This document shows positions 11,006 to 50,229 of a DNA stretch of 64,000 nucleotides, piece after piece. Below the pieces are notes generated by a model that was not told the origin of the DNA, did no database searches, and saw nothing but the letters and a program-made list of their open reading frames with translations. Source of the stretch: an uncultured Gemmatimonadaceae bacterium (GTDB taxonomy: Bacteria; Gemmatimonadota; Gemmatimonadetes; Gemmatimonadales; Gemmatimonadaceae); contig CAWAGQ010000013.1 of the NCBI GenBank assembly GCA_963781585.1, positions 288,001-352,000 of the forward strand, read 5' to 3'. Made by a program: the position numbers and the translations under genes. Each line of letters opens with the position of its first letter. Within the stretch, counting starts at the first letter, position 1.

Positions 11006-11410
11006 ATGCAGCCGAATCCGAAACTCCTGCGCTCGTGGCGTGCGAAATTGTGCGTTGGGGATTTCAGCCGGCGGACGGAGGAGTCGTACGTGAGCTGGGG
11101 TGCGTCGCTTCATCGAACGCAATCAGCTCCGCCACCCGCAAGACATGAGGGAACGCGAAGTCGTGCAGTTTCTGACCTTCCTTGCCGTCGAGCGCACACT
11201 CGCTGCCGCCACCCAGGCCCAGGCAGTTGCGGCGCTCCAGTTCCTGTAACCCTGCGCCATTCCTTTGCGACGCATTTGCTTGGAGGCAGGCCATGACATC
11301 CGAACGGTACCGGAGCGATTGGGGCGTCGTGACGTATCGACGACGATGATCTACACGCGCGTGCTGAATCGCGTTCGGTCGGGTGTTCGCAGCCCGGTGG
11401 ACCGCGTATT
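11006..11410 (+). pseudogene. intI: Integron integrase remnant: internal deletion and two frameshifts
   Basis: N-term FSRRTEESYVSW/VRRFIERNQLRHPQDMREREVVQFLTFLAVERTLAAATQAQAVAALQFL joined at ~11250 to C-term [48 protein letters not shown]; the C-terminal tail is characteristic of IntI. Confidence 0.85.
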
Positions 11411-12065: not shown

Positions 12066-12992
12066 ATGTTGAGCACCTCTATTGCCGCTGTCCGGCACAT
12101 CTCGGTCGTCAAGTTGGGCGAGTCGATCCTCGAGGCGCTGGGCGTTCTATGGCTCATTCTCGAGATCACGGCTTACTTTTCCACCCAGTCGTCCGCGGTC
12201 ATCAGGCCGTACTGGTGGCTGTTTCTGATCGGGGGCGTTGGAGCAGGCCTCGTCCGCGCTTGGCCTCGACTCGCGGCTTCAGAGATTGTCGAGGGATCGG
12301 ACTGCACCATCGAGATCCGAGTGTGCGATATCCTCTCTCTTCGACACGTCGCACTGGTTGTCGGAACGAACGACACTTTCGATACCGCGCTTTCTGATGG
12401 CACGATTAGCAGCGAGAGCGTTCAGGGTCAGGCGACACTCCGCTTGCTTGCATCTCCGGAACAGCTGAATCGAGAACTCGACCATTCACTCGCTGGAACG
12501 GCGGCCACCGAGTTGTCTTACGATGACAAACCCTTCGGCAACTTAAAGCGATACCCAATTGGGACCGTGGCGAGTGTGGATGCTGGTACGCGGCGCATAT
12601 ACTTCGCCGCCATCGCCTCGCTCAACGCGCACCGCGTGGCCCACACAACCCGCCGGGATATCGCCGATGCGCTACCCCGGATTTGGGAACACATCCGCGA
12701 GCGAGGAGGGCTACACCCCCTGGCGTGTCCCGTGCTCGGATCGGGCTACTCACGATTGGACGCTACACGCGAGGAGCTCATTCGGGAGATCATCCGGTCA
12801 TTCGTGCCGGCAGTGAGGGCTGGAATGTTCTGCCGCGGACTGACGATCGCGGTTAGTCCCCGAGACTTTCGTGATGGACGCGTGAGTCTCACCGCGCTCG
12901 GGAGCTTCCTCGCGCACGAGTGCAAGTACGGAAGCGCGGGGCTGAGCCGGGACGTGGGCGGGCCACTCGGAACACCTCAAGGTTCAGCCTGA
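12066..12992 (+). CDS. thsA: Two-TM + macro-domain protein, type II Thoeris ThsA-like effector
   Basis: Two N-terminal hydrophobic helices, then IEIRVCDIL, VVGTNDTFDT, SVQGQ, YPIGTVA, PVLGSGYSRL macro-fold motifs; directly downstream of the TIR gene. Confidence 0.72.
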   Translation: MLSTSIAAVRHISVVKLGESILEALGVLWLILEITAYFSTQSSAVIRPYWWLFLIGGVGAGLVRAWPRLAASEIVEGSDCTIEIRVCDILSLRHVALVVGTNDTFDTALSDGTISSESVQGQATLRLLASPEQLNRELDHSLAGTAATELSYDDKPFGNLKRYPIGTVASVDAGTRRIYFAAIASLNAHRVAHTTRRDIADALPRIWEHIRERGGLHPLACPVLGSGYSRLDATREELIREIIRSFVPAVRAGMFCRGLTIAVSPRDFRDGRVSLTALGSFLAHECKYGSAGLSRDVGGPLGTPQGSA

Positions 12993-15900
12993 TGCCTCGG
13001 ATCTTCGACAACATCCACGATGATCTGCTTCCTGCCCTGCGCGCCATGCTGGAGGTCGCGAATCGTTCCGACTTCAGCGTTGGCTATTTCAACCTCCGCG
13101 GATGGAAGACCCTCGATGATCTCGTCGAGCGGTGGCCGGGAGGTGGGGGCAACCAGTGCCGGCTTCTGGTCGGAATGCAGCGACTCCCGCAGGATGAGCT
13201 CCGCGCGGCCCTGAGTGTCGCTGCCCCGGGGCACGATGAACTCGACAACCAAACTGCGCAGCGACTCAAGAAGAAGCTTGCCGAGGAGTTTCGCAATCAA
13301 CTGACCTTCGGTGTCCCGTCCAATGCAGACGAAGCAGGGCTGCGGCGTCTTGCCGGGCAACTCAGGGCCGGCAAGGTTGTCGTCAAACTGTTCCTCCGGC
13401 ACGCGCTGCACGCCAAGCTGTACCTGCTCTTCCGCACGGACCCCGTCAATCCGATCGTCGGTTACCTGGGCAGCAGCAACTTGACGCTGTCCGGCCTCTC
13501 GCATCAAGGTGAGCTGAACATCGACGTCCTCGATCACGATGCCGCCACGAAACTGGCGAACTGGTTTGAGGACCGCTGGAACGACCGCTGGTGTGTCGAC
13601 ATCACCGAGGAGCTGATCCAGGTCATCGGCGAAAGCTGGGCGCGCGAGGAGGCACTGGCGCCGTACCACATCTACGTGAAGATGGCCTACCATCTTGCGC
13701 AGGAAGCCCGCGCCGGCCTCGCTGAGTTCCGCATCCCTCCAGAGTTCGGGAATCGGCTCTTCGACTATCAGGTTGCTGCCGTCAAGATCGCCGCACACCA
13801 TCTAAACAAGCGCGGCGGCGTGCTGATCGGCGATGTCGTGGGTCTCGGCAAGACGTTGATGGCATCTGCCTTGGCCAAGATCTTCCAGGACGATCACTTC
13901 ACCGAAACCCTGATTATCTGCCCCAAGAATCTCGTGAAGATGTGGGAGGACTACGTCTCCGAGTACCGATTGCTCGCAAAGGTCCTCTCAGTCACCCGCG
14001 CCGCTCGCGAGCTCCCGGAGCTTCGGCGCTATCGCGTGGTGCTCATCGACGAGAGCCAGAACCTCCGCAATCGCGAGGGCAAGCGCTACCGCGCCATTCA
14101 GGAGTACATACAGGAGAACGAAAGCAAATGCATCCTGTTGTCCGCGACGCCCTATAACAAGACCTACCTCGACCTCTCGAGCCAGTTGCGCCTGTTCGTT
14201 GCCGAAGACAAGGACATGGGGATTCGCCCGGAGCGTCTTCTCCGTGAGCTGGGTGAGACCGAGTTCATCCGACGTCACCAGTCACCGGTACGCTCGCTTG
14301 CCGCGTTCGAGAAGAGCGAATATGCCGATGATTGGCGCGAATTGATGCGTTTGTACATGGTGCGCCGGACGCGGAGCTTCATCCAGGACAACTACGCCGC
14401 AACCGATCCGGCAAATGGGCGCAAGTTCCTGACCTTCGAAGACGGCACGCGATCGTACTTTCCTGACCGAATACCCAAGACAGTCAAGTTCCGCATTGAC
14501 GAGAAGAGTCCTTCCGATCAGTACGCGCGGCTTTTCGCCCCTGACGTTGTCGTCGCGATCAACGGGCTTAGCCTGCCCCGGTATGGACTTGCGAACTACG
14601 TGGCCGCCACGCCACACAAGGCACCCACGACAGCGGAGGCAAAGCAGTTGCAGGATCTGTCGCGCGCAGGCAAGCGCCTCATGGGCTTCTGCCGCACCAA
14701 CCTCTTCAAGAGGCTCGAAAGCAGTGGCGATGCTTTCGGACAGTCCATCGAACGACACGTTCTGCGCAACTACATCGTCCTGCACGCCATCGAACACGCC
14801 TTGCCCCTGCCGCTGGGAACGCAGGATACAGGCCTCCTTGACGCTGGCAACTATGACGAAGATGTCGACGACGAGGCTGCGACAGCCGAACTGTTCGAGG
14901 ACGAGAACGGCGATGGTGTGACCGCCCCGCCGCGTGCCGCGCTGCGCAGCGTCGAAGATTTCAAGAAGCGAGCGGCGGAACTCTACGAATCCTACGCGAC
15001 TCAATTCAAGCGGCGCTTCAAGTGGCTCCGGCCGGACTTGTTCGTCAAGTCACTCGCAACCGATCTTGAGGCGGATGCCGTGAGCTTGCTCGAGGTCCGC
15101 ACACGCTGCGGCCAGTGGGACCCGTCAAAGGATGCCAAACTCGATGCGCTCTATAACCTTTTGGAGAAGCGCCACCCCCGCGAGAAGGTACTCATATTCA
15201 CCCAGTTCGCAGACACAGTCCGTTACCTCGAGGCGCAGCTTCGCGCACGCGGAGTCAAGCGGCTCGCTGGCGTCACCGGAGAGGACGAGGACCCCACGAG
15301 CTACGCCTGGCGCTTCAGCCCGGACAGCAACAAGAAACGCAAGCGCCTGCGGCCCGATGAAGAGCTACGTGTTCTGCTCGCGACCGATGTCCTCAGCGAA
15401 GGCCAGAACCTTCAGGACGGGGCCATCATCGTCAACTTCGACCTCCCTTGGGCCATCATCAGGCTCGTTCAGCGGGCAGGTCGCGTCGATCGCATTGGGC
15501 AGAAATCGGAGAAGATCCTTTGCTATTCTTTCCTGCCGGCTGATGGCGTCGAGAACCTGATCCGCCTGCGCGCGCGGGTGCGCCAGCGGCTGCACGAGAA
15601 CGCCGAGGTTGTTGGCACGGACGAAGCTTTCTTTGAGAACGAGAGAGAGCGCCAGAAGCTCCTCGACCTTTACCACGAGAAGTCAGGCATTCTCGATGGG
15701 GAAGCGGAGACCGAAGTGGACCTCGCTTCATACGCCTACCAGATCTGGAAGAACGCCATTGACCGTGATCCAGACCTGCGGAAGTCAATTCCGGCGCTCC
15801 CGCCGGTGGTCTTCTCGACTCGTCCACACGAAAGCACCGAGCGGAAGCCGCATGGCGCCCTCGTCTACCTTCGGACTGCCGAAGGCAATGACGCGCTCGC

Positions 15901-16387
15901 GTGGGTCGACAAGGCCGGCAACAACGTCACCGAGTCCCAGTTCGAGATCCTGAAGGCGGCGGAGTGCACACCCGATACCCGCGCGTTACCCCGCCAAGCA
16001 GATCATCATGACCTCGTACGGAAGGCGGTTGACTTTGTCGTGTCCGAGGAGAAATCGGTCGGCGGCCAGCTGGGCCGCCCATCCGGTGCCCGGTTCCGTA
16101 CTTACGAGCGCCTTAAACGCTACGCCGAGCAGGTCAAAGGCACGCTATTCCAGTCGCCCGAGCTCGCGAAGGCCATCGAAGAGATCTACCGCTTTCCACT
16201 TCGGCAATCGGCCACCGACACCCTGAATCGCCAGCTGCGAGCTGGGATCTCGGACGATAAGCTGGCCGAGCTGGTGATGGCGCTCCGCGACGACGATCGG
16301 CTGTGCTTGGTCCACGAGGAAGAGCACTCCGCCGAGCCCCAGATCATCTGCTCCCTCGGCCTGGCCCCGGCCGAGAGCGGGAGCTGA
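12992..16387 (+). CDS. PLD-nuclease / SNF2-like helicase fusion (restriction-type subunit)
   Basis: ATG overlaps the previous stop (TGATG); HAKLYL...GSSNLT...ELN PLD motif; GDVVGLGKT, DESQN, SAT, SEGQNLQ, QRAGRVDRIGQ helicase motifs. Confidence 0.88.
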   Translation: MPRIFDNIHDDLLPALRAMLEVANRSDFSVGYFNLRGWKTLDDLVERWPGGGGNQCRLLVGMQRLPQDELRAALSVAAPGHDELDNQTAQRLKKKLAEEFRNQLTFGVPSNADEAGLRRLAGQLRAGKVVVKLFLRHALHAKLYLLFRTDPVNPIVGYLGSSNLTLSGLSHQGELNIDVLDHDAATKLANWFEDRWNDRWCVDITEELIQVIGESWAREEALAPYHIYVKMAYHLAQEARAGLAEFRIPPEFGNRLFDYQVAAVKIAAHHLNKRGGVLIGDVVGLGKTLMASALAKIFQDDHFTETLIICPKNLVKMWEDYVSEYRLLAKVLSVTRAARELPELRRYRVVLIDESQNLRNREGKRYRAIQEYIQENESKCILLSATPYNKTYLDLSSQLRLFVAEDKDMGIRPERLLRELGETEFIRRHQSPVRSLAAFEKSEYADDWRELMRLYMVRRTRSFIQDNYAATDPANGRKFLTFEDGTRSYFPDRIPKTVKFRIDEKSPSDQYARLFAPDVVVAINGLSLPRYGLANYVAATPHKAPTTAEAKQLQDLSRAGKRLMGFCRTNLFKRLESSGDAFGQSIERHVLRNYIVLHAIEHALPLPLGTQDTGLLDAGNYDEDVDDEAATAELFEDENGDGVTAPPRAALRSVEDFKKRAAELYESYATQFKRRFKWLRPDLFVKSLATDLEADAVSLLEVRTRCGQWDPSKDAKLDALYNLLEKRHPREKVLIFTQFADTVRYLEAQLRARGVKRLAGVTGEDEDPTSYAWRFSPDSNKKRKRLRPDEELRVLLATDVLSEGQNLQDGAIIVNFDLPWAIIRLVQRAGRVDRIGQKSEKILCYSFLPADGVENLIRLRARVRQRLHENAEVVGTDEAFFENERERQKLLDLYHEKSGILDGEAETEVDLASYAYQIWKNAIDRDPDLRKSIPALPPVVFSTRPHESTERKPHGALVYLRTAEGNDALAWVDKAGNNVTESQFEILKAAECTPDTRALPRQADHHDLVRKAVDFVVSEEKSVGGQLGRPSGARFRTYERLKRYAEQVKGTLFQSPELAKAIEEIYRFPLRQSATDTLNRQLRAGISDDKLAELVMALRDDDRLCLVHEEEHSAEPQIICSLGLAPAESGS

Positions 16388-16396
16388 GGTGTGCCG

Positions 16397-19393
16397 ATGG
16401 CTCTGAACGCTGCGCGCGCTCGGGAACGTCTCGCCAAGGGTGACCTGCGCGCTCTGTTTATCGAAGAACTCGGATGGGATCGTCATACGGCAACCCTGAG
16501 GGTAACCGTGGACGGCTCAACGCTCGATCTACACGCGCTCGCTCAGAAGCGCGGCATGGTCGCCTACCATTGCCCCGCGCCTGCGGGCCAGCCCCTGCCT
16601 GATTACAGCCACCGCCGCAAGATCGAGCATCAAGTCGCCAAGTCAGCACACGAGCACCTCATCATTTTCACCGACCCGGGCAACCAGACTCAGGTCTGGC
16701 AGTGGGTGAAACGAGAACTCGGAAAGCCGACCGCGTGTCGGGAGCATGCCTACCACCGCTCCCAGCCCGGTGACGCACTGCTCCAGAAGTTGAACGCCAT
16801 TGCGTTCACGCTAGAAGAGGAGGATCGGCTTTCTCTTCCGGACGTCACTCGGCGTGCTCGTGCCGGGTTCGATGTCGAGAGGGTTACCAAGCGCTTCTAC
16901 GACCGCTTCCAGAAGGAGCACGGAGCCTTTCTCAAGTTCATCACCGGCATTACCCAGAGCACCGACCGCGAGTGGTACGCCTCGGTCATGTTGAACCGGT
17001 TGATGTTCGTCTACTTCGTGCAGCGCAAGGGTTTCCTCGACGGCGACCGCCACTACCTCCGCAACCGGCTCGCGCGCATGCGCGCCGAGCATGGCAAGGA
17101 CAAGTTCTACTCCTTCTACCGGTACTTCCTCCTCCGCCTCTTTCATGAGGGGCTCGGCGGCAAGGCGCGCACGCGCGAGCTCGAGGCGCTCGTCGGTCAC
17201 ATCCCGTACCTGAACGGTGGCCTCTTCGACGTCCACGAGCTGGAGAAATCGGATCGCTACGGCAAGACCATCCGGATCCCCGACTCGGCGTTCGAACGCA
17301 TCTTCGACTACTTCGATCAGTACCAGTGGCACCTGGACGAGCGGCCGCTCCGCGCCGACAACGAGATCAACCCAGACGTACTGGGCTACATCTTCGAGAA
17401 GTACATCAACCAGAAACAGATGGGGGCGTACTACACGAAGGAGGACATCACCGAGTACATCAGCAAGAACACTGTGCTGCCGTACCTCTTCGATTCCGCG
17501 CGCACCAAATGCAGAGTTGCGTTCGAGAATGCTAAAGGCCCCACGGTCTGGGACCTGCTGAAGTCCGACCCCGACCGGTACATCTACTCTGCCGTTCGCC
17601 ACGGCGCCGGGGAACCGCTGCCGGCGGACATCTCCGCTGGGCTGAATCCACCGACTTTGCACAAAGCGGTGGGCGACGGCCCCGTCATGACCCTTGAGCT
17701 CAGGAAGGGCTGGAACAGGCCGGCACCCGCGACGCACGCGCTCCCGACGGAGACATGGCGTGAGGTAATCGCGCGCCGGACGCGTTATGAGGAGATCAAG
17801 AAGGGGCTCGCTGCTGGCGAGGTGAGGGACATCAACGACCTCATTACCCTCAACCTCGACATTCGCCAGTTCGCCCAGGATGCCATCGAGAACTGCGAAG
17901 GCCCGGACCTCCTTCGTGCCTTCTGGCATGCCATCGAGAAGGTGACCATCCTCGACCCGACGTGCGGGTCGGGCGCGTTCCTCTTCGCGGCCCTGAATAT
18001 CCTCGAACCGCTGTACGAGGCCTGCCTGGACCGGATGGAGGCCTTCGTTGACGATCTCGCTCGGTCGGGAGAGAAGCATCGCCCGGAAAAGTATTCCGAC
18101 TTCCGGAAGGTGCTGGATCGCATCGCGGCCCATCCCAATCGCCGTTACTTCATCTTCAAGAGCATCATCCTCAACAACCTCTTCGGCGTGGACATCATGG
18201 AAGAGGCGGTGGAGATCTGTAAGCTCCGCCTCTTCCTTAAGCTTGCGGCGCAGGTGGAGCCGGACTCCGCGCGCGACAACCTCGGCATTGAGCCTTTGCC
18301 GGATATCGATTTCAACATTCGCGCCGGCAACACGCTCGTCGGCTACGCGACGCTTGATGCCGTGAAAGAGGCACTCGGCAGCAAGCTCGACTTCGACAAC
18401 GCGGCCGACAAGATCGCGGTTAAGGCCGCAGATCTCCAGCAGGTCTTCGACGCATTCCGGGCGCGGCAGGTGGAGGGCGACGGTTCTGTTCCGGCGGAGC
18501 ACAAGCAGGAGCTCCGCAAGCGTCTGAGCGCCCTGGATGAGGAACTCAACCGTCACCTTGCGAATGAGTACGGCGTCGAGTGGACGAAGAAAGACGCCTA
18601 CACCAAGTGGCTGAAGTCCCATCAGCCATTCCACTGGTTCGTCGAATTCTACGGGATCATGAGCGGTGGCGGGTTCGACGTGATAATTGGGAACCCGCCG
18701 TATCTGGAGTACTCCAAGGTTGCCGAGTATTCAGTCCGCGGGTACGCGACTGAGCGATGCTCGAATCTCTACGTGTATACGGTCGAGAGGTCGCTCGCTC
18801 TGAACGGCCCCCGTGGGAGCTTGGGGATGATCATCCCAATCTCAGCCGCATGTTCCGGCGCCATGCAGCCGCTCCGTGACCACCTCACGCAGCGGGCCGG
18901 ATCGCTCTGGCTCTCTCATTTTTCAAACCGCCCGGGTCAGCTGTTCAATGGAGCCCAGAACCGTCTGACGATACTTGTCGCCTCGAGACGGCGTGGAGAC
19001 CGAAAGGTCTTCTCCACTCGATACCATAGATGGGACGCCAGAAATGGCGAACGAGACAGCCTGTTTCCCGTCTTGCGTTACCTCGAGACAGGCGAGGAGG
19101 CGCCCATGTTTCATGGGCTTCTCCCCAAGATTGGTACTCCCGAAGCAGCCGCTGTGCTGAAGAAGATCAGATGTGCCAAGACGGTCGCGTTCTTCACCAC
19201 AAGGCGCGGCAAGTACAAGCTCTTCTGGGTGCGCGTGCCCGGCTATTTCTGTGTCTTTCTTCCCGGCCGCTTGCCGCGCGGCTTTCAAGGCAGGCCGGAT
19301 CCTGTTCTTGTCCCCGTTCACCAAGCATCCGAGGCGTGTCACGAAGGAGTCTGCCCTCCGGCGCAACGAGGTGGTCGCCGCGCTCGCAGATGA
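16397..19393 (+). CDS. Eco57I-like adenine DNA methyltransferase; C-terminus probably truncated at ~19245
   Basis: IPYLNGGLF, GAYYT, ILDPTCGSGAFL (motif I), GVDI, IIGNPPY (motif IV); last ~45 aa look like out-of-frame read-through. Confidence 0.85.
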   Translation: MALNAARARERLAKGDLRALFIEELGWDRHTATLRVTVDGSTLDLHALAQKRGMVAYHCPAPAGQPLPDYSHRRKIEHQVAKSAHEHLIIFTDPGNQTQVWQWVKRELGKPTACREHAYHRSQPGDALLQKLNAIAFTLEEEDRLSLPDVTRRARAGFDVERVTKRFYDRFQKEHGAFLKFITGITQSTDREWYASVMLNRLMFVYFVQRKGFLDGDRHYLRNRLARMRAEHGKDKFYSFYRYFLLRLFHEGLGGKARTRELEALVGHIPYLNGGLFDVHELEKSDRYGKTIRIPDSAFERIFDYFDQYQWHLDERPLRADNEINPDVLGYIFEKYINQKQMGAYYTKEDITEYISKNTVLPYLFDSARTKCRVAFENAKGPTVWDLLKSDPDRYIYSAVRHGAGEPLPADISAGLNPPTLHKAVGDGPVMTLELRKGWNRPAPATHALPTETWREVIARRTRYEEIKKGLAAGEVRDINDLITLNLDIRQFAQDAIENCEGPDLLRAFWHAIEKVTILDPTCGSGAFLFAALNILEPLYEACLDRMEAFVDDLARSGEKHRPEKYSDFRKVLDRIAAHPNRRYFIFKSIILNNLFGVDIMEEAVEICKLRLFLKLAAQVEPDSARDNLGIEPLPDIDFNIRAGNTLVGYATLDAVKEALGSKLDFDNAADKIAVKAADLQQVFDAFRARQVEGDGSVPAEHKQELRKRLSALDEELNRHLANEYGVEWTKKDAYTKWLKSHQPFHWFVEFYGIMSGGGFDVIIGNPPYLEYSKVAEYSVRGYATERCSNLYVYTVERSLALNGPRGSLGMIIPISAACSGAMQPLRDHLTQRAGSLWLSHFSNRPGQLFNGAQNRLTILVASRRRGDRKVFSTRYHRWDARNGERDSLFPVLRYLETGEEAPMFHGLLPKIGTPEAAAVLKKIRCAKTVAFFTTRRGKYKLFWVRVPGYFCVFLPGRLPRGFQGRPDPVLVPVHQASEACHEGVCPPAQRGGRRARR

Positions 19394-19478
19394 GGCGTAC
19401 GTCGCGCACGTCGCAAGCGGCGGGAAGACAGACCAGATCGTGAAGAAGCTGGCGGAGTGGAAGGTGCCGCTTCTGTGA
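19245..19478 (+). pseudogene. C-terminal fragment of a DprA/Smf-like (SLOG) protein
   Basis: GRILFLSPF...RRVTKESALRRNEVVAALADEAYVAH..SGGKT resembles the DprA RN..IA.LA...V...SG motif; no plausible own N-terminus. Confidence 0.55.
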
Positions 19479-19511
19479 AGACGTCGCGCATTGGAGCCGT
19501 CGAGGGCAGGC

Positions 19512-19569
19512 GTCTAACGAAGTAAAGATTCGTGCCGCGCGATAGCCGCGGCACAATCTGGGGTTGAAC
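19512..19569 (+). other. attC-like site (58 bp, atypical short right spacer)
   Basis: R'' GTCTAAC, stem AGATT-c-GTGCCGCG/CGCGGCAC-AATCT with one unpaired base, R' GTTGAAC. Confidence 0.65.
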
Positions 19570-19782
19570 TCAGTCCGCCCCGCGGCAGGGCCTTGGAGTT
19601 TCAGGCGGGTGCGTGACCCGAGGCGACGTCCAGGACGCCCAGCGAAGCGAGCGTCAGGCGGCCTGCCGAGCCCAGACCGGGGGCCGCGCACCGGACCAGC
19701 CGCGCGCGATTGAGGCCGGCGCAGCGTTGGCCGTGCGCTCCGGCGATCATGGGGCGCGGCTTCGCCGGACCACGCGCGCGGA

Positions 19783-20952
19783 TCATGCGGCGACTGTGGC
19801 AGTCGGTGGGGTGGAGCACGGCGAGGACCACGAGTCCGGCGGCGCGCGCGATCGGGTGAAGTGGTCGATGACCACGAGGCGACCGCGCCGACAGACCGGG
19901 CAGCAGGGGTCCGGCGCGGTTGGTGGCTGGTCGTGCGCGACCGGAGTCTGCGCCGGGATGTTGCTCGCGGACTTCGGGACGCCGTCGCGAGCGTGAAGCT
20001 CGAGGAGATCGCGGGCCCGTTCCAGCTGCGTGCGGCGGCCGGGGCTCAGGAGACCATAGGAGCGGACCTTGGTGAAGCCTCGGGGGAGGACGTGCTGGAG
20101 GAAACGGCCGATGAAGGTGTTCACCGGCAGCGTCAGGCGCCGGGTCTCCCCGGTGCGTGCGTGGGTATAGCGGAAGGTGACGCGATCATTGCTGAAGCGT
20201 TCGATGCGGTGGTTGGTGAGGGCGACGCGGTAGATGTAGCGGGAGAGATAGAGTGCGGCGTGCTGCCCGGTGCCGATGGCCTTGACGTGGACCGTCCAGC
20301 GGTGGGTCCACACGCCGGGATCGACCTCGCCGGCGAGGCCGGCTCGTGCGAACGCGTCGCGCATCTTCGCCCGGAAGATCGGGGAGAGCATGTAGCCCGG
20401 GACGAGGAAACGAGAATGAGCGGGCTTGATCCAGGCCGTGCCGTCCGCGCCGAGGCCGCCGGCGCTGACGAGGAGGTGGACGTGGGGATGGTGCTCCAGG
20501 GTGCGCGACCAGGTGTGGAGTACGGCGAGGATGGCGGGAGTGCCGCCCACCCAGTTCGGGTCCTTACAGAGCGTGAGGACAGTGGCAGCTGCTTCGCGTA
20601 GAAGGGCGGCGTATACCAGGCGCTGGTGCGATCGGGCGACGGACCGCAGCCCCTGTGGGAGGGTGAACGTGAGGAGGTAGTGGCCGGTGTGGAGAAGCCG
20701 CTGCCGGACTCGCTCCAACCATCTCTGGGCCCGATCGTCCTGGCACGTGGGACAGTGGCGGTTGCGGCAGGAGTGGTAGCGGTACGCGAGGGCAGCGCAC
20801 TCGTCGCAGCGGTAGAGCGAGCCACCGAGGGCCGGTGTGCGACACTGGACGATGTCGTTCATGGCCCTCCGGTGGGAGGGCAGGAGCGGTCCGGCGTGGG
20901 TCCGCAGATACTCGGGCCCCGCCCTGCGGAGGATGTCCGCGAGCTCCACCAC
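19783..20952 (-). CDS. IS91-family (HUH, rolling-circle) transposase
   Basis: CRTPALGG, SCRNRHCPTC Zn-binding domain, LHTW...HPHVH (HUH), YLSRY, FLQHVLPRGFTKVRSYG. Confidence 0.92.
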   Translation of the reverse strand: MVELADILRRAGPEYLRTHAGPLLPSHRRAMNDIVQCRTPALGGSLYRCDECAALAYRYHSCRNRHCPTCQDDRAQRWLERVRQRLLHTGHYLLTFTLPQGLRSVARSHQRLVYAALLREAAATVLTLCKDPNWVGGTPAILAVLHTWSRTLEHHPHVHLLVSAGGLGADGTAWIKPAHSRFLVPGYMLSPIFRAKMRDAFARAGLAGEVDPGVWTHRWTVHVKAIGTGQHAALYLSRYIYRVALTNHRIERFSNDRVTFRYTHARTGETRRLTLPVNTFIGRFLQHVLPRGFTKVRSYGLLSPGRRTQLERARDLLELHARDGVPKSASNIPAQTPVAHDQPPTAPDPCCPVCRRGRLVVIDHFTRSRAPPDSWSSPCSTPPTATVAA

Positions 20953-20999
20953 GGCCCGTCTCGGGGGCAGTGGCTGTCTGAACCGACGGGCCTAACGAC

Positions 21000-21872
21000 T
21001 CAAGAGCGACGCGCCATGAGATCGTTGATCGGACTCAGCGCGGCGTCGTGGAGCTCCCGGGTGAGGTGGGTGTAGATGGCGGTTGTTCTGGGACTGGTGT
21101 GGCCCAGATACTCCTGGATCAATCGCAGATTGACACCGGCCTCCAGCAGGTGCGTGGCGTAGCTGTGCCGGAGCGTGTGGACGTGCGCGCGCTTGTGGAT
21201 ACCGCTGGCCCTGACAGCACGGACGAAGGCGCTCTGAAGGCTGGCGCGGGAGATGGGGCCCACGGCCGGGTCGCTCAGGACGCCGGCATGGGATCGGGTG
21301 ATCGTGGGGAAGAGCCAGAGGGGATTACGGTGCGTCCGCCAGTGCTCTCGCAACAGCGCGAGGGTGGCGTCCGGGAGCGGGACGTAGCGATCCTTGCGGC
21401 GCTTGCCGTGAATGTGGAGCAGCTTCCGGGCACCATCGACATCGGGGACCTGGAGGCGGGCGCCCTCCAAGAGGCGGAGGCCGCAGGCGTAGATGGTCGT
21501 CAGGCAGACGCGGTAGACGGGAAGTCGAAGATGATCCAGGATTTGCCAGACCTCGCCGCGGCTCAGGACGACCGGGAGCTTCTTCTCCCCCTTGGGCCGG
21601 GCCACCTTGAGGACCATCCACTCGCGCCCAAGCGTGTGCTGGTAGAAGAACTTGAGGCCGCAGAGGGCGATGGTGTGGGTGCCCCGGGCGACCTTCTGAA
21701 CGGTGGTGAGGTGAAGGAGGTAGTCGCGGAGCTGCTCTTCCGTGAGGGTGTCGGGTGAGGCATGATAGAAGCGGGCCAGCTGAGCGACGGAGCGGACGTA
21801 GGCTTCGACGGTGCGATCGGAGTAGCCGCGGAGCTGGAGATCCTGGATCATGCGTTGGCGGAGCGGTGTCAT
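21000..21872 (-). CDS. Tyrosine recombinase (IS91-associated type, N-terminal SAM-like domain)
   Basis: MTPLRQRMIQDLQLRGYS, YACGLRLLE, HTLRHSYATHLLEAG, LGHTSPRTTAIYTH; RBS GAGGAC; lacks the IntI-specific insertion. Confidence 0.92.
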   Translation of the reverse strand: MTPLRQRMIQDLQLRGYSDRTVEAYVRSVAQLARFYHASPDTLTEEQLRDYLLHLTTVQKVARGTHTIALCGLKFFYQHTLGREWMVLKVARPKGEKKLPVVLSRGEVWQILDHLRLPVYRVCLTTIYACGLRLLEGARLQVPDVDGARKLLHIHGKRRKDRYVPLPDATLALLREHWRTHRNPLWLFPTITRSHAGVLSDPAVGPISRASLQSAFVRAVRASGIHKRAHVHTLRHSYATHLLEAGVNLRLIQEYLGHTSPRTTAIYTHLTRELHDAALSPINDLMARRS

Positions 21873-21991
21873 GGTGTCCTCGCTGAAGGGGTTCAGCGTG
21901 AACATTGGACATCACTCCGCCAACTTCATCAGCCACGGTGGAGTAAGGGCACGCACCGAAATCGCAGTGCTAGACGCCGAAGGCGGATTGA

Positions 21992-22085
21992 GTTCAACCA
22001 CGCGTTGCAGCCGACGCGGGCGCCATGGTGGCGGCTTCGCCGCTTTGATTGGACTGCCCGCGCAGCTGAACGCTAGGCGTTAGGC
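21992..22085 (+). other. attC site
   Basis: R'' GTTCAAC, CGTTGCAGCCGACGCGGGC.../...GCCCGCGCAGCTGAACG stem, R' GTTAGGC. Confidence 0.85.
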
Positions 22086-22098
22086 GGAGCTTCAAGTC

Positions 22099-22593
22099 AT
22101 GAGCACTTCAGAGCTGGACACTCAGTCTGCAGCGGAGCGACGATCGGCGGAAGCCCGGTTGCGGGCGCTTATCGCCAAGTGCGTTCCCGCGCACCAACGG
22201 CTCACCGGCGCATTGCGACGATGGCTGCGAAAGCGCCTGCCCACCGCCCATGAGGTGGTCTATGAGTATTCTGACTGCCTCGTCATCAGCTATTCACCGA
22301 ACGAGCGCGGGTATGACGGGGTCCTTGCCATCCGCGCGAGCGCCGACGGAGTCAAGCTGTACCTCAATCGTGGCACGGGATTGCCGGATCCTGAGAAACT
22401 GTTGCGGGGGTCCGGCAAACAGACGCGCTGGATTCCCGTGGAGGGCGCATCCACACTCGCTCGCTCGGCGGTCGTGGACGTGATCGACAGAGCCATCGCT
22501 CGAAGTCGCGTCCCGTTTGGGCGCACCGGCCTTGGGTTGGTGGTCATTCGTTCGGAAGTGGCCAAGGCGCGTGGGCGGCGTCGCCCCGCCTAA
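22099..22593 (+). CDS. Cassette protein, DUF1801/YdhG-like
   Basis: Starts 14 bp after R'; LPDPEKLLRGSGKQTRWI motif; stop lies in a degenerate R'' (GCCTAAA, 22588) whose context GCCCCGCCTAAA nearly complements the cassette start GTTAGGCGGAGC. Confidence 0.6.
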   Translation: MSTSELDTQSAAERRSAEARLRALIAKCVPAHQRLTGALRRWLRKRLPTAHEVVYEYSDCLVISYSPNERGYDGVLAIRASADGVKLYLNRGTGLPDPEKLLRGSGKQTRWIPVEGASTLARSAVVDVIDRAIARSRVPFGRTGLGLVVIRSEVAKARGRRRPA

Positions 22594-22653
22594 AAAACCC
22601 CTGGAGCTGGCGGGAAGGGAATCTCGTAGAACATTCCTCTCGTAGGACCCTGC

Positions 22654-25587: not shown

Positions 25588-26427
25588 GTGGTGGGCATGG
25601 TGGTGGCGCTCGTTCCAGCGCTGCTGTCGTGGCGCGGCGATCTCGCGCATGCCCTCCGCGGCGGGGCACGGGGCGGGCACAGCGAGGGGGCGCGGTTGCG
25701 TTCCGGATTGCTGGTCCTGCAGGCGACGCTCGCGGACGTGCTGCTGGTGGGCGCCTCGCTGTTCGTGCGCAGCCTCGATGCGGTGCGCGACCTGCGCATG
25801 TCGCCGAGGACGTGGTGCAGCAGAACCTGTCGGGCGGGACGCGCTACCACTTCTACATCCCCATCGAGCAGTTCACGCGGACCTGGGGGAATGGGCTCGT
25901 GGTTCGCGTACGGGGGGACGTGGCTCGCGAGGCCGGGGCCGTGCGGGATGCGCTGCAACGGGTCATCCCGGCCGCCGTCGTACGTCATGGTCCGGCGGCT
26001 CGACGACATCGTCGGCACCGCGCAGCGACCGTGGCGGCTGGGGGCGACGATGTTCAGCATGTTCGGGCTTCTCGCCCTGGTCGTGGCGTCGGTCGGACTG
26101 TACGGCACCATCAGCTATGGCGTGGCGCAGCGCATGCACGAACCTGGTGTGCGCGTGGCCCTGGGGGCGCAGCGAGGGAACATCATGCGCCTGGTGGTAG
26201 GCCACGGATTCTGGCTGGCGCTCGCGGGCACCGTCCTCGGCGCGTTGATCGCACTCGCCGCGGGGCCGCTGATCCAGCCGCTCCTCTTCCGGCAGTCGGT
26301 CCGTGATCCGATCGTGTTCGCGGGCGTCGCTGTGCTGATGGTGGGCCTGGCATTGCTCGCGAGCGCGGTGCCGGCGAGGCGTGCGGTGCGGGCGGACCCG
26401 AACTCGGCGCTGCGTTCGGCGGATTGA
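25588..26427 (+). pseudogene. Internally deleted, frameshifted ABC (MacB/FtsX-like) permease fragment
   Basis: RLRSGLLVLQ..LLVGASLFVRSL joined to C-terminal GLYGTISYGVAQR.HE.GVRVALGA...PARRAVRADP. Confidence 0.75.
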
Positions 26428-26944: not shown

Positions 26945-27047
26945 CTATGGCGGAGGGCTCACGTGTGGCGATAGTTGGCCGCACCCGCTGCTTAACGCCT
27001 GGTGGTTGGGCCGGCAGGCCCACACATCAACTCTGAGAGGATGGGAC

Positions 27048-28527
27048 ATGCCTCCTGGACTCCGACAACTATTCAAGGGAACCCTGCTGCTCGCCTGCGC
27101 TACTGCTCAGACAGCGGCTCAGACGCCGGCGCTCTCGACGGCGCCAGTCGGGCAGCGGGATCTGTCCGAGTATGAGGGGCTCTACAACTACCGCGACGGT
27201 GGCAGGTTGTCCATCGTCGCAGGCGGCGACCGACTGGTGGCAGTCATCGGCGGAGCGAAGTATCGGCTTCGTGCCGCGGGCGTGGACACGTTCACGAACC
27301 CCGGAGGTGACCCGATTCCCTTTTTGCGTGACGCCAACGGTCGGATCGTGGCCTTCAAGGAGCACGATGATACGTTTCGGAGGCGCTCATCGAGCGTGCC
27401 GGTGTCCGTGCGGCTGCTGTTCGAGCCGCGTCCGAAGGACGCGGCAGGACGGCCGGTCGTCTACCATTACGCACCGCCCCGGCAGCTTGCGGACGGTATT
27501 CGCGCCGGCGTGGCTGGATCGGACACTCTCTGGCCGGCGGTTGCGGGGCGGCTCGTAGACGGCGTCATGGATCGGCACGTACCCCGATGTGCATTCGATC
27601 CTCGTCTATCACAAGGGTGCGTTTCGACTCGAGGAGTACTTCTACGGCTACAATCGCGATCGGCCGCACCAGATGCGCTCCCTCACCAAGAGCGTGATCT
27701 CGCTGCTTGCCGGAGTGGCCGTGGACCGGGGACTGCTCCGCGCCGATGAACCCGTGCTCGGGCAGCTCGGCTATCCGGCCTACCGGAATCCCGATGCTCG
27801 CAAGGGGCGAGTGACGCTGACGGACCTCCTGAGTAACCAGTCGGGCTTCGCCTGTGACGACCACGACGACGCTTCGCCGGGCAATGAGGTGAAGCTGTAC
27901 GACACGCCGGATTGGGTGAAGGCGTTCGTCGATCTGCCCATGGTGGCCGATCCGGGCACCGTCGGACGCTACTGCTCCGGCGGCATTCTCACGGCAGGCC
28001 GAATCGTCGAACGCGCGGCGGGCAAGTCCCTGCCGGCTTTCGCGCAGGAGGCCTTGTTCGGGCCGCTCGGTATTCAACGATCCGAGTGGCACTGGGACTT
28101 CAGGCTCGATCGCAGCCAGCGCAATGAGTTCGGGCAGATCTACCTCACGCCCCGTGACATGCTGAAGCTCGGGATCCTCATCCAGCGCCGCGGGGAGTGG
28201 GGAAACCGGCGGGTTGTGTCCACCACATGGATCGACGCCGCCGTTGCCCGGCAGTCGCATGTCGACGACAGCGACTACGGCCTGGGGATCTGGCATCGCT
28301 GGTACCGCGTGCAGGCGCGAAGCGGGGACCGCCGCGTCGACACCATCATGCTCTCGGGGAACGGCGGCCAGAAGGTGTATCTCGTTCCGTCCCTCGATCT
28401 GATCGTCGTATTCACGGGAGGTGCCTACAACACGGAGTCGCCTGCGAACGAGATGATGGCAGGGGTGCTCCTGCCGGCGCTGATTGAGGCCGAGGCGACC
28501 ATGTTGCGCCCCTCGGGTGGCGGCTGA
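27048..28527 (+). pseudogene. Serine hydrolase (beta-lactamase class C-like family), frameshift ~27570
   Basis: Signal peptide in one frame; SLTK (SxxK), YCS and LSGNGGQ in the next frame. Confidence 0.75.
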
Positions 28528-41543: not shown

Positions 41544-43002
41544 GGGGATAGGAAATTCAATCGCGCAGCGCCCGGAAGGTTGCGTCGGCAACTGCGGTGG
41601 GAGAGCCGCGGGTGGGGAACGCCGCGCGCGGAGGGCGCGCCGGACGCGTCCGCGGCGCGTCTGAGACGCGAGCGGGACGGGCGGTGGCGGCGACGCGCGT
41701 CGGGCGTGCCACGGTCGCGCAACCCACGCGTCCCCACGGCACTCAGCCTGAGTCATGGGGGAACGGGCAAACAGGGGTAACGCGTTAGGCGCTTTGACGC
41801 GCGGGGCGTGCCGACGCGCGGCGCGCTGTCGTGCGCGCCGTCGGCGGCGGCCCGCGGGCGGCCTCGCGGGTCCGGCGCATGTGGTCGAGGATCCGGTCGA
41901 TCCCGGCGCGCTGCGTGATGAAGGCGACGATGCGCATCTCGGCGCCGCACTGGGGGCACCGGAGCGGATCGACCTCGAAGAGCTGCCGCAGTAACTCGGC
42001 CCAGCGCCGCCGCGCCTCGCGGAGCGGGAGCGGCACCGCCTCAGCGATCGTCGTCGGTGGCGCGTCCGCGGTCGCCGCGCGCCGGGCACCGCGCACGCGA
42101 TTGGCGTAGTAGCCGTAGTAGCGCGTCATCACCTGGTGCTTGTTCGGCACGTGCGCCAGCACCCGCGCGAGAAACTCCAGCGGATCCACCGTGTCGGTCC
42201 CCGCCGTCGGCCCGTCCGCCTTGTCGGAGCGGTAGCGCACCTGGCGCGCCGGCGCATCGTACTCGAGCCGGTCGAGCGCCACGGGATTGCGCGCGCAATA
42301 CCGCGCCAAGCGCAGCGCGAAGGCCGTGTCGCCATCGGGGACCAGCACCGCATCGTGCACGTGAAAGCCCGAGTGCGGCCAGGCCAGCATCCCCTCGGCA
42401 TCTTCGTGCTCGAACAGCCCGCGCCGCACGAACAGCCGGAGCACGGCGCGACGAAACGCTTCGGTGAGCTGGGCCGTGTCGTGCGCGGGCCATGGCACGA
42501 AGGCGCCATCAGAACGGAAGCCCCCGTCGGTCGCAATCATATGAATGTGCGGATGCCAGTTGGCGAGCGATCCGTGGGTCTGGATGCAGCCCACGATGCC
42601 CACGGCGAGCGTCGGCTCTCGGGTCAGTGCGCGCACGGCGGCGGTCACCGTGCGCGCCGCGACGCGGGCGAGATCGCCCAGGAGCGAGCGGCGGTAGAGA
42701 CACCACGCGCGGAGGCGCTTGGGGATCGTGAGCACCACCTGGCGGTGCGGCACGCCGGGCGCAAGGAGCGAGTCTTCGAGCCACAACGTCCAGAGCGCCA
42801 AGCGCTTGGCGTGACAGCTCGGGCAGAAGTAGCGCGCCTTGCACGAGAAGGCGAGCAGGTACTCGTGCGCGCAGGCGTCGCAGCGCACGCGCGCGAATCC
42901 GTGCTCGAGCACGCCACACGCGAGGAACTTGTCGGCGACTTCGCGCACGACCGGGCGCCAGTCGCCATAGGTCGCGGCGAACCGCTCTTCGTACGCGGCG
43001 TG
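41544..43002 (-). mobile_element. ISCR-like element copy A, 5'-truncated (transposase remnant 41785-43002)
   Basis: Appears identical to 45460-46918 (offset 3916; six-frame ORFs match); oriIS-like end; homology stops at 43002, removing the transposase N-terminus. Confidence 0.85.
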
Positions 43003-43318
43003 CATGCCGTTCTCCCTGAGCGTGCTCTGTCGTCCCGGAGGTTGCCGGTGTGCCCGAGCAGCCCGCAAGGGGCGGCAGGCATGTCCGCGAACCTGCCTCA
43101 GCGCCCGTTCCGGTCATTCGCGGCAGCCGCGCGTCCAGCCGACATAAGCAATCTGGCGTTAACGGTGCGCATTGCCGGATTGCCCTGCGCGGTTCGCCGC
43201 AACATGATGCTGCCAGCGGCGAGCGAGTGAAGGCGACGGGCTCATTCTGCTGGAGAGGGATGCATGCCCGCCCCGTCCATCCTGGCTGCGAATGCTTCGT
43301 CGATCAACGGGAGATATC

Positions 43319-45459: not shown

Positions 45460-47128
45460 GGGGATAGGAAATTCAATCGCGCAGCGCCCGGAAGGTTGCG
45501 TCGGCAACTGCGGTGGGAGAGCCGCGGGTGGGGAACGCCGCGCGCGGAGGGCGCGCCGGACGCGTCCGCGGCGCGTCTGAGACGCGAGCGGGACGGGCGG
45601 TGGCGGCGACGCGCGTCGGGCGTGCCACGGTCGCGCAACCCACGCGTCCCCACGGCACTCAGCCTGAGTCATGGGGGAACGGGCAAACAGGGGTAACGCG
45701 TTAGGCGCTTTGACGCGCGGGGCGTGCCGACGCGCGGCGCGCTGTCGTGCGCGCCGTCGGCGGCGGCCCGCGGGCGGCCTCGCGGGTCCGGCGCATGTGG
45801 TCGAGGATCCGGTCGATCCCGGCGCGCTGCGTGATGAAGGCGACGATGCGCATCTCGGCGCCGCACTGGGGGCACCGGAGCGGATCGACCTCGAAGAGCT
45901 GCCGCAGTAACTCGGCCCAGCGCCGCCGCGCCTCGCGGAGCGGGAGCGGCACCGCCTCAGCGATCGTCGTCGGTGGCGCGTCCGCGGTCGCCGCGCGCCG
46001 GGCACCGCGCACGCGATTGGCGTAGTAGCCGTAGTAGCGCGTCATCACCTGGTGCTTGTTCGGCACGTGCGCCAGCACCCGCGCGAGAAACTCCAGCGGA
46101 TCCACCGTGTCGGTCCCCGCCGTCGGCCCGTCCGCCTTGTCGGAGCGGTAGCGCACCTGGCGCGCCGGCGCATCGTACTCGAGCCGGTCGAGCGCCACGG
46201 GATTGCGCGCGCAATACCGCGCCAAGCGCAGCGCGAAGGCCGTGTCGCCATCGGGGACCAGCACCGCATCGTGCACGTGAAAGCCCGAGTGCGGCCAGGC
46301 CAGCATCCCCTCGGCATCTTCGTGCTCGAACAGCCCGCGCCGCACGAACAGCCGGAGCACGGCGCGACGAAACGCTTCGGTGAGCTGGGCCGTGTCGTGC
46401 GCGGGCCATGGCACGAAGGCGCCATCAGAACGGAAGCCCCCGTCGGTCGCAATCATATGAATGTGCGGATGCCAGTTGGCGAGCGATCCGTGGGTCTGGA
46501 TGCAGCCCACGATGCCCACGGCGAGCGTCGGCTCTCGGGTCAGTGCGCGCACGGCGGCGGTCACCGTGCGCGCCGCGACGCGGGCGAGATCGCCCAGGAG
46601 CGAGCGGCGGTAGAGACACCACGCGCGGAGGCGCTTGGGGATCGTGAGCACCACCTGGCGGTGCGGCACGCCGGGCGCAAGGAGCGAGTCTTCGAGCCAC
46701 AACGTCCAGAGCGCCAAGCGCTTGGCGTGACAGCTCGGGCAGAAGTAGCGCGCCTTGCACGAGAAGGCGAGCAGGTACTCGTGCGCGCAGGCGTCGCAGC
46801 GCACGCGCGCGAATCCGTGCTCGAGCACGCCACACGCGAGGAACTTGTCGGCGACTTCGCGCACGACCGGGCGCCAGTCGCCATAGGTCGCGGCGAACCG
46901 CTCTTCGTACGCGGCGTGAAACGCGCGGAAGTGGTCGCTCACGAGGCGAAACAGCGGCGAGGCCTGCGGGCGGCGCGGCTTGTAAACGCCCGGCGCCACG
47001 CATGCGGGGACCGCGGACATCGCGCACGGCGCTCCGAAGCACGGGAGCGCCGAGCATACGCCCATCGCGGGCGGACGCCGTCACCAGAAGGTCGCGCGCA
47101 GTGCCGTTCCAGCGCATGTCGCGCCGCG
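45460..47128 (-). mobile_element. ISCR-like (IS91-related rolling-circle) element copy B
   Basis: Downstream end reads CGATTGAATTTCCTATCCCC on the minus strand, similar to ISCR oriIS (...TTGAACTTCCTATACCC); upstream end abuts an attC. Confidence 0.8.
45701..47020 (-). CDS. ISCR/IS91-family transposase
   Basis: CGVLEHGFARVRC, FSCKARYFCPSC, HRQVVLTIPKRLR, HPHIH (HUH), HSGFHV, LARYCAR, RYYGYYAN, RGPP. Confidence 0.92.
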   Translation of the reverse strand: MSAVPACVAPGVYKPRRPQASPLFRLVSDHFRAFHAAYEERFAATYGDWRPVVREVADKFLACGVLEHGFARVRCDACAHEYLLAFSCKARYFCPSCHAKRLALWTLWLEDSLLAPGVPHRQVVLTIPKRLRAWCLYRRSLLGDLARVAARTVTAAVRALTREPTLAVGIVGCIQTHGSLANWHPHIHMIATDGGFRSDGAFVPWPAHDTAQLTEAFRRAVLRLFVRRGLFEHEDAEGMLAWPHSGFHVHDAVLVPDGDTAFALRLARYCARNPVALDRLEYDAPARQVRYRSDKADGPTAGTDTVDPLEFLARVLAHVPNKHQVMTRYYGYYANRVRGARRAATADAPPTTIAEAVPLPLREARRRWAELLRQLFEVDPLRCPQCGAEMRIVAFITQRAGIDRILDHMRRTREAARGPPPTARTTARRASARPARQSA

Positions 47129-47219
47129 GCCTAACGGTGCTTGCTGCTGACGAGCGGCTTGCGGAGACTCGCTGCGCTCGCGATGATGTGACCGCTCGCA
47201 GCAGAAGCTGGCGTTAGGC
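47129..47219 (+). other. attC site
   Basis: R'' GCCTAAC, GCTTGCTGCTGACGAGCGG/CCGCTCGCAGCAGAAGC stem with extrahelical bases, R' GTTAGGC. Confidence 0.88.
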
Positions 47220-47569: not shown

Positions 47570-47873
47570 TGAGAACCTGCCCGTCGATTTGGCGAAGGAG
47601 TTGCCTGGCCACACCGTAGATACCGTCCGGGCGTTGGACTGGAGCGGGGTGGCGAACGGCGAGTTACTCCGACGGACCGCGGAGAACCACGAGGTCTTCG
47701 TCACGATGGACCGAAATCTCGAGCACCAGCAGCGGATTCAGGCGTTTCCGTTTGGGATCGTGGTGATCCACGCCGCCTCGAACCAGCTCAAGCACCTCCG
47801 GCCCATGCTCCCAGAGCTGCTCGCGGTCTTCCAGACCGTGCGCCCGGGCGAGCTGGTGCGGGTCGGTGCCTAA
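47553..47873 (+). CDS. DUF5615 PIN-like toxin
   Basis: RILLDENLP, NGELL, FVTMDRNL..QQ; overlaps the antitoxin; stop codon inside attC R''. Confidence 0.88.
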   Translation: MRILLDENLPVDLAKELPGHTVDTVRALDWSGVANGELLRRTAENHEVFVTMDRNLEHQQRIQAFPFGIVVIHAASNQLKHLRPMLPELLAVFQTVRPGELVRVGA

Positions 47874-47962
47874 CAGACAAATGCAGACTGCCGGCGGTTG
47901 CTGCGTAGCGGCTTTGCCGCTCTGATGATAGAAACCGCCGCACTTGATTCGTAGCGTTAGAT
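47868..47962 (+). other. attC site
   Basis: GCCTAAC...GGCGGTT/AACCGCC and AGCGGC/GCCGCT stems...GTTAGAT; GTGCCTAAC complements the cassette start GTTAGGCAC (47213). Confidence 0.78.
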
Positions 47963-50131: not shown

Positions 50132-50229
50132 ACCTAACGACGTTGCAGCTGACAAGCGATCTAGTGGTTGCGCGTGGTTTTGCCACGCGCTCTTATTGAC
50201 TCGCTTGCAGCTGAACTTTGGCGTTATGC
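50132..50229 (+). other. attC site
   Basis: R'' ACCTAAC, GTTGCAGCTGACAAGCGA/TCGCTTGCAGCTGAAC, inner GCGCGTGG/CCACGCGC, R' GTTATGC. Confidence 0.85.

Follow-up and report, generated by a model that had tools for sequence, protein, structure and literature searches.

Insertion sequences (ISs) of the IS91 family carry a HUH/Y2 transposase with an N-terminal zinc-binding domain and are defined as lacking terminal inverted repeats. Some of them, such as the ISMno24 family and ISShvi3, encode a tyrosine recombinase as well. In the available part of 10.1101/542381, the recombinases borne by IS91 elements fall into an "Integron-like" subgroup without the insertion of the integron integrase, IntI, and the available part of PMC9229058 records ISShvi3 beside an attC in a Shewanella integron. 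Here we describe an element with such a gene pair in a 64,000-nucleotide (nt) stretch of DNA from an uncultured Gemmatimonadaceae bacterium (contig CAWAGQ010000013.1, positions 288,001 to 352,000), hereafter the window. It belongs to an IS91-family subgroup in which the recombinase gene stands directly upstream of the transposase gene, and appears to carry an attC-like site of its own and to have inserted into an attC of an integron cassette array. Recombinase-bearing members of the IS91 family are known. The attC-like site and the targeting of integrons are apparently undescribed, the open full-text literature searched having yielded no attC-like junction, GTT-core targeting or attC insertion for such elements; a prior account elsewhere, as in IS databases or subscription journals, is possible.

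The element resembles several known systems in part. It has the IS91 transposase with its zinc-binding domain, but also terminal repeats, which are kept in its clade. With the ISMno24 family and ISShvi3 it shares the gene pair, its order and orientation, and a size of ~2.4–2.5 kb. With integron attC sites it has in common R-type and L-type stems separated by an unpaired spacer, a bulge in the L-type stem and a loop that differs in length, and with cassettes a crossover at G↓TT (AA↓C; the arrow marks a junction or crossover point throughout), a site 3' of the genes, the hybrid sites that are left and a recombinase close to IntI. The element differs from cassettes in bringing both a recombinase and a HUH transposase, and this recombinase is without the IntI insertion and falls below the IntI cut-off. 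The outer stem of an integron attC is 7 bp long against 17–18 bp in the element, whose bulge is on the crossed arm, and the element uses the R'' box of its attC targets and therefore lies antisense to the array.

In the integrative mobile elements exploiting Xer (IMEX) of the CTX-phi type, a single strand made by HUH rolling-circle replication folds into a hairpin mimic of a recombinase site, which a tyrosine recombinase integrates by one strand exchange. The logic is the same, but IMEX are phages, dependent on the XerCD of the host and directed to dif, whereas the present element is a 2.5-kb IS encoding its own recombinase. Group IIC-attC introns target attC in a fixed orientation. IS1111-attC insertion sequences also insert into the attC sites of arrays in a fixed orientation, according to the available part of PMC9229058. 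Both rely on entirely different enzymes (a reverse transcriptase and ribozyme in the introns, an IS110-type transposase in IS1111-attC) and are not known to have an attC-like site of their own.

The two genes and their relatives

The recombinase and transposase genes lie on the same strand, 47 nt apart, and both open reading frames (ORFs) are uninterrupted, as the original prediction, made from the letters of the window alone, had stated. The transposase matches PF04986 and PF14319 and scores 353.1 bits against NF033538 (cut-off 125). Its H155, H157, H159, Y235 and Y239 (HxH and YxxxY motifs) are invariant in the alignment of 25 homologues used for comparison; homologues of 370–400 amino acids (aa) show 62–83% identity, and the homologue search found 4141 related proteins.

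Among NCBIfam families the recombinase scores highest against that of integron integrases, TIGR02249 (201.5 bits), with XerC and XerD behind; the score lies under the cut-off of 265, and the true IntIs of nearby loci reach 293–468 bits. The best solved structure is VchIntIA (2a3v; E 7.6e-37), to which it aligns in two blocks, residues 22–184 and 219–294. The IntI-specific insertion is not present: there are 34 residues where VchIntIA (IntI4) has 66, a short segment that agrees with the available part of 10.1101/542381. By these measures the recombinase appears to be IntI-like, with integron integrases as its nearest kin, yet not an IntI in the strict sense.

For comparison, 80 related loci were taken from reference genomes, out of at least 566 matching places, in Gemmatimonadota, Acidobacteriota, Verrucomicrobiota, Chloroflexota, Planctomycetota and others. 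The recombinase gene is directly upstream of the transposase gene in 77 of the 80; in two of the remaining three, the contig ends within the locus. The pair is also found on alphaproteobacterial plasmids, four examples of which (L081–L084) were considered beyond the 80; one is annotated as "IS91-like element ISMno24 family transposase". The original prediction had cited the pairing of an integrase with an IS91 transposase as known. The alphaproteobacterial elements are like the window's in having terminal repeats (17 nt, ~2.5 kb apart, in L082–L084), and differ from it in their end sequences and in a transposase that is ~40% identical. One of them, L082:1-4862, is a Sphingomonas parapaucimobilis "plasmid" whose only annotated genes are the recombinase and the IS91 transposase. 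That this molecule of 4862 nt is a dimer of the element was ruled out, as it contains no long direct repeats.

Terminal repeats and an attC-like site

The two 18-nt arms at the ends of the element (Table 1) are complementary at 17 of 18 positions. Allowing up to three mismatches, the repeat pattern occurs at only two places in the window, with 0.09 expected by chance, and none of 100 shuffles contained two or more. The arms hold GTTGAAC (19563–19569) and GTTCAAC (21992–21998), which fit GTTRRRY and RYYYAAC, the consensus of integron core boxes. The original prediction had noticed these repeats and boxes, which are real and beyond chance, and had taken them for core sites of the array. In this latter respect it was mistaken: TTGAAC-type repeats terminate the element in every phylum examined and are not borrowed. 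The arm is kept in related loci as (G)TTGAACTNAATCCGCC and in Chloroflexota as TTGAACTAAGC.

Next to the transposase-distal arm is a hairpin of attC type. It consists of an R''-type box, GTCTAAC (19512–19518), a spacer, a stem (19526–19559) with a bulged C at 19531, a GGG spacer and, as R'-type box, the GTTGAAC of the arm; the first six nucleotides of GTCTAAC (19512–19517) derive from the host attC. In window orientation the consensus of the site reads yTAAC-GAATTAAGGATT...stem...AATCC-GGG-TTGAAC, and the flank beyond the other repeat varies by locus. A covariance model comprising the repeat, the hairpin and the next six bases (R1) scores 75.1 bits in the window (E 8.7e-17) and, at E ≤1e-5, finds the window and 67 loci. 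The site lies 195–428 nt past the transposase match in 66 of the 80 loci, and that of L050 belongs to a second, partial copy. Among the 13 loci without such a match, eight have less than 340 nt of contig left, three have weaker or truncated matches and two (L030 and L039) have none.

The inner stem shows compensatory changes in 11 of 13 pairs, with 90.6% of cells paired, a level of covariation reached by none of 500 shuffles, and pairing falls to 36–42% when the stem partners are slid by 1–3 columns. The alignment was fitted to R1 with a structure supplied by hand, which favours that structure; RNAalifold on a MAFFT alignment recovered only 7 pairs. Site length varies from 64 to 112 nt across loci and is set by the loop. 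The site thus has the pairing of R'' with R' and of L'' with L', the spacer, the extrahelical base and the variable loop of an attC-type structure, kept over sequence. Because it is kept with the element in many phyla and its stem covaries, the hairpin at 19512–19569 appears to be the element's own attC-like site, not the attC of a neighbouring cassette. The original prediction had made it an attC of the array, reversing the assignment of the two flanking hairpins, and annotation based on attC sites would be expected to repeat this miscall. A second copy of the hairpin directly follows the element's site in two loci, complete in L055:2892-2925 and partial in L041:5448-5470, which suggests either that the element entered a site remaining from a different copy or that the site was duplicated.

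Limits of the mobile unit and the joined ends

A matching repeat is found 2.3–2.5 kb upstream in 48 of the 68 sites (67 loci and the window), giving units of 2357–2499 bp. From the comparison of copies, the mobile unit of the window extends from ~19518 to 21997. Three copies in a single Verrucomicrobiae metagenome-assembled genome (MAG; L009–L011) are identical inward of TCAA↓T-GAATTAAG and different outside. At their far ends the base next to GTTCAA is C, T and T. What comes after AA is thus the same in all three at the hairpin junction and differs among them at the far one, which fits a crossover at AA↓N on the gene-antisense strand (G↓TT on the gene strand). The last base of the element covaries with its repeat partner (CG 43, UA 7 and GC 3 of 68) and is therefore inherited with the element. 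The element lies between two copies of the GTT (AAC) core, and no target duplication is seen past this shared AAC or GTT. These features fit, at each of the two junctions, a crossover within the shared AA↓C of the plus strand, which the gene strand reads as G↓TT.

When the ends of the window's element are joined in silico, the resulting 94 nt have a folding energy of −33.8 kcal/mol, with a z of −7.3 relative to mononucleotide shuffles, and form a 17-bp outer stem formed by the repeats, an internal loop and an inner stem of 5+8 bp with one bulged base. The predicted fold has the architecture of an attC: the repeats make the R-type outer stem and the hairpin the L-type inner stem, with a single bulge and a loop that varies in length. 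Read along the gene strand, the order is TTGAAC...genes...site...G↓TT, as in a cassette, with the polarity of the bulge reversed and with R'', in array orientation, as the box that is used.

Such a junction may also exist in nature. The contig L063 is 2458 nt long and its first 24 nt are the same as its last 24 nt, leaving a unit of 2434 nt that is the same as the element there. Its head-to-tail junction reads ...TTATTCG↓TTGAACTAAGC..., with a single GTT, and takes the same two-stem fold (z −4.98). The overlap is what a circular molecule or a tandem copy would leave, though it could also have arisen in assembly.

Targets and the association with integrons

What did the element insert into? In the window it interrupted a host attC at its R'' box, with the element's genes antisense to the array, leaving two hybrid attC-like sites. 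The original R'' of the host attC is GTCTAA (19512–19517), and the remainder of the site follows the far repeat (Table 1). The rebuilt target, GTCTAA↓C-CACGC-GTTGCAGCCGAC...GTTAGGC, is 94 nt long and folds at −25.5 to −28 kcal/mol; its R'' and R' pair at 7 of 7 positions, counting G-T, and its R''-spacer-L'' layout is that of the other attCs in the window. The GTTCAAC of the recombinase-proximal arm serves as R'' box of the hybrid downstream attC, a role that the original prediction had given it correctly. The uninvaded array is predicted to read GTCTAAC-CACGC-GTTGCAGCC...GTTAGGC, without the hairpin 19518–19562. A single attC split midway was considered and rejected: both flanking hairpins fold independently, and by comparison one of them belongs to the element.

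Across the copies, the element is followed by TT in 48 of 48. Of the 44 bases that stand before it, 32 are G, 8 are A and 4 are C, and the following target positions are a purine (36/46), G or T (35/46), a purine (34/46) and a pyrimidine (30/46), a preference close to GTTRRRY. For 40 copies, eight others having been left out for too short a flank, the rebuilt target was scored as an AAC...GTT-closed structure of 45–140 nt against as many as 60 further NTT sites from that locus. Twelve of the 40 lay at or below the 5th percentile of these controls (~2 expected) and 15 at or below 7%. Clear attC-like targets are those of the window, L003, L016, L041, L055, L059, L067 and L080; attCs are preferred but account for only part of the insertions. 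Five of these targets (window, L067, L059, L041 and L003), when read antisense to the element, carry the bulged bases G16 and A23 on their 5' arm, and the element therefore usually lies antisense to the array, joined at the R'' box. The copies L009–L011 sit at unrelated places that share GTTGA-N5-TCAA↓Y-N5-6-TCAAC, which may be a short repeated target and not an attC.

Besides the window, 6 of the 80 loci have intI or a remnant of it in their flanks, which were covered to a distance of up to 4 kb. The gene is intact in L064 (467.7 bits), reaches 423 bits at a contig end in L013, has an internal stop in L007 (329.5 bits), is internally deleted in L041, and is reduced to C-terminal pieces in L003 and L071. 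The attC-like targets and the nearby intI genes together support a tie between this family of elements and integrons. The deletion in L041, which leaves residues 7–194 and 282–325, is similar to that in the window.

The surrounding array

The window (67% G+C) carries its cassette array on the plus strand, with 18 GTTAGGC boxes on that strand and 7 on the other. The array attCs have the layout RYYYAAC, a spacer of 3–5 nt, (G or C)TTGCAGC..., GTTRRRY. In addition to the sites in Table 1, degenerate ones are found near 24.4, 25.3, 26.7, 28.7 and 28.8 kb. The cassette products are small unrelated proteins, for example GNAT, hydrolase, DUF1801 and cupin proteins.

Table 1. Features of the window discussed in the text; strands are those of the window
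Feature	Position	Strand	Basis
Attachment site of the element, attC-like, integrated (hybrid) form	19512..19569	.	covariance model, fold
Mobile element, 2480 bp	~19518..21997	-	comparison with other copies
Terminal inverted repeat, transposase-distal arm, GGTTGAACTCAGTCCGCC	19562..19579	+	repeat search
IS91-family HUH/Y2 transposase, 389 aa	20952..19783	-	Zn_Tnp_IS91 + Y2_Tnp; NF033538
Tyrosine recombinase, 301 aa	21905..21000	-	Phage_integrase + Phage_int_SAM_4
Terminal inverted repeat, recombinase-proximal arm, GGCGGATTGAGTTCAACC	21982..21999	+	repeat search
Rest of interrupted host attC: spacer, L'' GTTGCAGCCGAC..., L', R' GTTAGGC 22079-22085	21998..22085	+	
attC-type site	21992-22085	+	box/layout scan of window
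attC-type site	47129-47219	+	box/layout scan of window
attC-type site	47868-47962	+	box/layout scan of window
attC-type site	50132-50229	+	box/layout scan of window
attC-type site	52403-52496	+	box/layout scan of window
Dead integron integrase gene, N-terminal and C-terminal pieces	11094-11410	+	TIGR02249 profile match
ThsA_Macro-domain protein	12066-12992	+	
SNF2/helicase protein with PLD nuclease domain	12920-16387	+	
Eco57I/MmeI-type methyltransferase	16391-19393	+	

The integron's own integrase gene is dead. Its remnant matches TIGR02249 positions 26–74 (11094–11246) and 261–315 (11245–11410), with the central ~190 profile positions gone and a change of frame between the pieces. The original prediction was right that intI is dead and wrong that the element's genes are next to it: the two are ~8 kb apart. 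The remnant shares its strand with the cassette array on its right and is not divergent from it. Between the remnant and the element, 12066–19478 on the plus strand holds defence-type genes; the methyltransferase ORF is overlapped, in a different frame, by a short ORF whose end at 19478 comes before the interrupted attC.

Farther to the right, a second IS91/ISCR-like transposase, without a recombinase, is present in two copies on the minus strand (41785–43068 and 45701–47065). These are 28.6% identical to the element's transposase and score 176–177 bits against NF033538. The stop of each ORF falls within a GTTAGGC box (41784, 45700), and the 140 nt preceding these boxes are identical between the copies; inspection of the two revealed no obvious ends of the element's type. 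On the plus strand, the cassette region also includes a C-terminal fragment of an FtsX-type permease (25588–26427) and an ORF of the serine beta-lactamase family (27589–28527; PF00144, E 2.6e-28), whose upstream part is apparently in another frame (27006–27749); both look like decayed cassette genes. A search of 19000–22600 against Rfam gave no match.

How might the element move?

IntI cleaves the bottom strand of attC, and the IS91 transposase nicks at the origin end of its element. An element that combines a HUH/Y2 transposase with an IntI-like recombinase could draw on both reactions. The HUH transposase would nick at the hairpin end and peel off or replicate the gene-antisense strand, from the hairpin to the far repeat, giving a single-stranded circle whose junction would fold into the attC-like hairpin. 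In the folded junction the 5' arm would carry 5'-GTTCAA↓C, a single base away from where the outer stem ends on its inner side, a position equivalent to that cleaved by IntI. The recombinase would cleave there and exchange this strand with a GTTRRRY or RYYYAAC core. Where the core belongs to an attC, as it often does, the top strand would be used, in mirror image of IntI, which takes the bottom one. Replication would complete the insertion. With the bulge on the crossed arm and the top strand used in attC targets, the reaction as a whole would mirror that of IntI. The first part of this scheme follows the ori-IS/ter-IS model of IS91 transposition, as given in the available part of PMC7923331.

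This two-enzyme model, in which the HUH transposase and the IntI-like recombinase act on an attC-like hairpin junction, is considered somewhat more likely than not, and is preferred because it accounts for the repeats, the two-stem site, the kinship of the recombinase and the association with integrons. A number of observations weigh against it. R1 finds no site in the four alphaproteobacterial relatives, so that the attC-like site is shown for the window's clade only. The bulged base is on the crossover arm, opposite to the canonical polarity of attC, and the recombinase is without the IntI insertion that reads such bases. The head-to-tail junction is seen in one contig of 80, where it could be a tandem copy or an assembly effect. 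Between 25 and 28 of the 40 targets are not attC-like; the original prediction had proposed to check the flanks of homologues for attC arms, and in these copies the target is unrecognisable as attC, though the ends are the same. One of the attC-like targets, L080, has the opposite bulge polarity. Hairpin energy in the 60 nt beside the crossover is not significant (mean z −0.38, Wilcoxon p 0.29), with 6 of 37 hairpin-side flanks, and 2 of 37 opposite ones, at or below the 5th percentile.

Finally, the junctions also fit a plain IS91 layout with CAAC at the far end, and the HUH enzyme alone could explain them. Transposition would then be by the ordinary IS91 rolling circle, with the hairpin as oriIS, xAAC as the target tetranucleotide and the CAAC end as terminator. 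The recombinase would be an accessory that, for example, resolves tandem or multimeric products at the repeats, and the likeness to attC would be secondary. The transposase is indeed intact, with invariant catalytic motifs, the hairpin is downstream of its gene in the 66 loci mentioned above, AAC closes both junctions on the gene-antisense strand, and most targets are not attCs. IS91 prefers GAAC or CAAG abutting the origin end downstream of the transposase gene; the tetranucleotide abutting the hairpin end, TAAC in the window and NNAA↓Y generally, is similar to these and not the same. Against this explanation, repeats of 17–18 nt go with the recombinase both in the window's clade and in the alphaproteobacterial one, whereas IS91 elements without a recombinase are not known to have any. 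The site, with its two stems, spacer, bulge and loop of variable length, is also of the kind to which a pair of recombinase monomers binds on attC. The nearest relatives of the recombinase are IntIs, the family is strongly associated with intI and attCs, and the pattern of constant and variable bases in L009–L011 fits an AA↓N crossover. Transposition by the HUH enzyme alone is possible, if rather unlikely.

The original prediction had proposed a cassette running from G↓TTGAAC (19563/19564) to G↓TTAGGC (22079/22080), which would own the downstream attC, stand beside an independent upstream attC and be moved at its R' boxes by IntI or by its own enzyme. In array orientation each of the flanking sites is a plausible attC, two R' crossover points bound the genes, and a live IntI could in principle excise such a unit after insertion. 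In L064, moreover, the start of the element is ~242 nt (a derived distance) from the start of the intact intI, with the genes facing away, as in a first cassette. The cassette geometry, with core-like ends and genes antisense to the array, is thus real, but the unit of 19562–22085 is not the one that the copies delimit, and the junctions are at RYYYAA↓C boxes, on the R'' side of the plus strand, instead of at two G↓TT R' boxes. The upstream hairpin is kept with the element in 66 of 80 loci while the downstream flank varies, the hairpin, unlike the downstream flank, is common to all three copies L009–L011, the L063 junction joins the hairpin end to the TTGAAC end, and the resident intI is dead. 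As the mode in which the family moves, such a cassette appears to be already contradicted, and we consider it very improbable. That the element is an inert remnant, its repeats and hairpins chance features of a GC-rich array and its genes decaying, is barely credible: the dead integrase of the integron is the sole point for it, and against it are repeats beyond chance, a covarying site, two ORFs of full length relative to their homologues with no frameshifts or stops seen, ends present in other copies, and the number of related places and proteins given above.

Implications for integron biology

On the two-enzyme model, the movement of neighbouring cassettes by the element, which the original prediction had also raised, is conceivable. 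A bolder proposal is that the family constitutes a self-contained sister system to integrons, in which the HUH enzyme would make gene-antisense circles and the recombinase would act at the R'' box of the top strand. This is doubtful at present, though if it were true, the elements could be near the ancestral state from which recombination by IntI and attC arose, and they could invert, duplicate or move cassettes where the integron's own integrase is dead, as it is in the window.

Within 2.5 kb, the element unites one of IntI's nearest relatives, a covarying attC-like site and an enzyme expected to make single strands, and it is found inside integrons. It bears on how integrons came to recombine folded single strands, and on the role of the recombinase in elements that pair it with an IS91 transposase. 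In cassette arrays, such elements add hybrid attC sites and antisense insertions.

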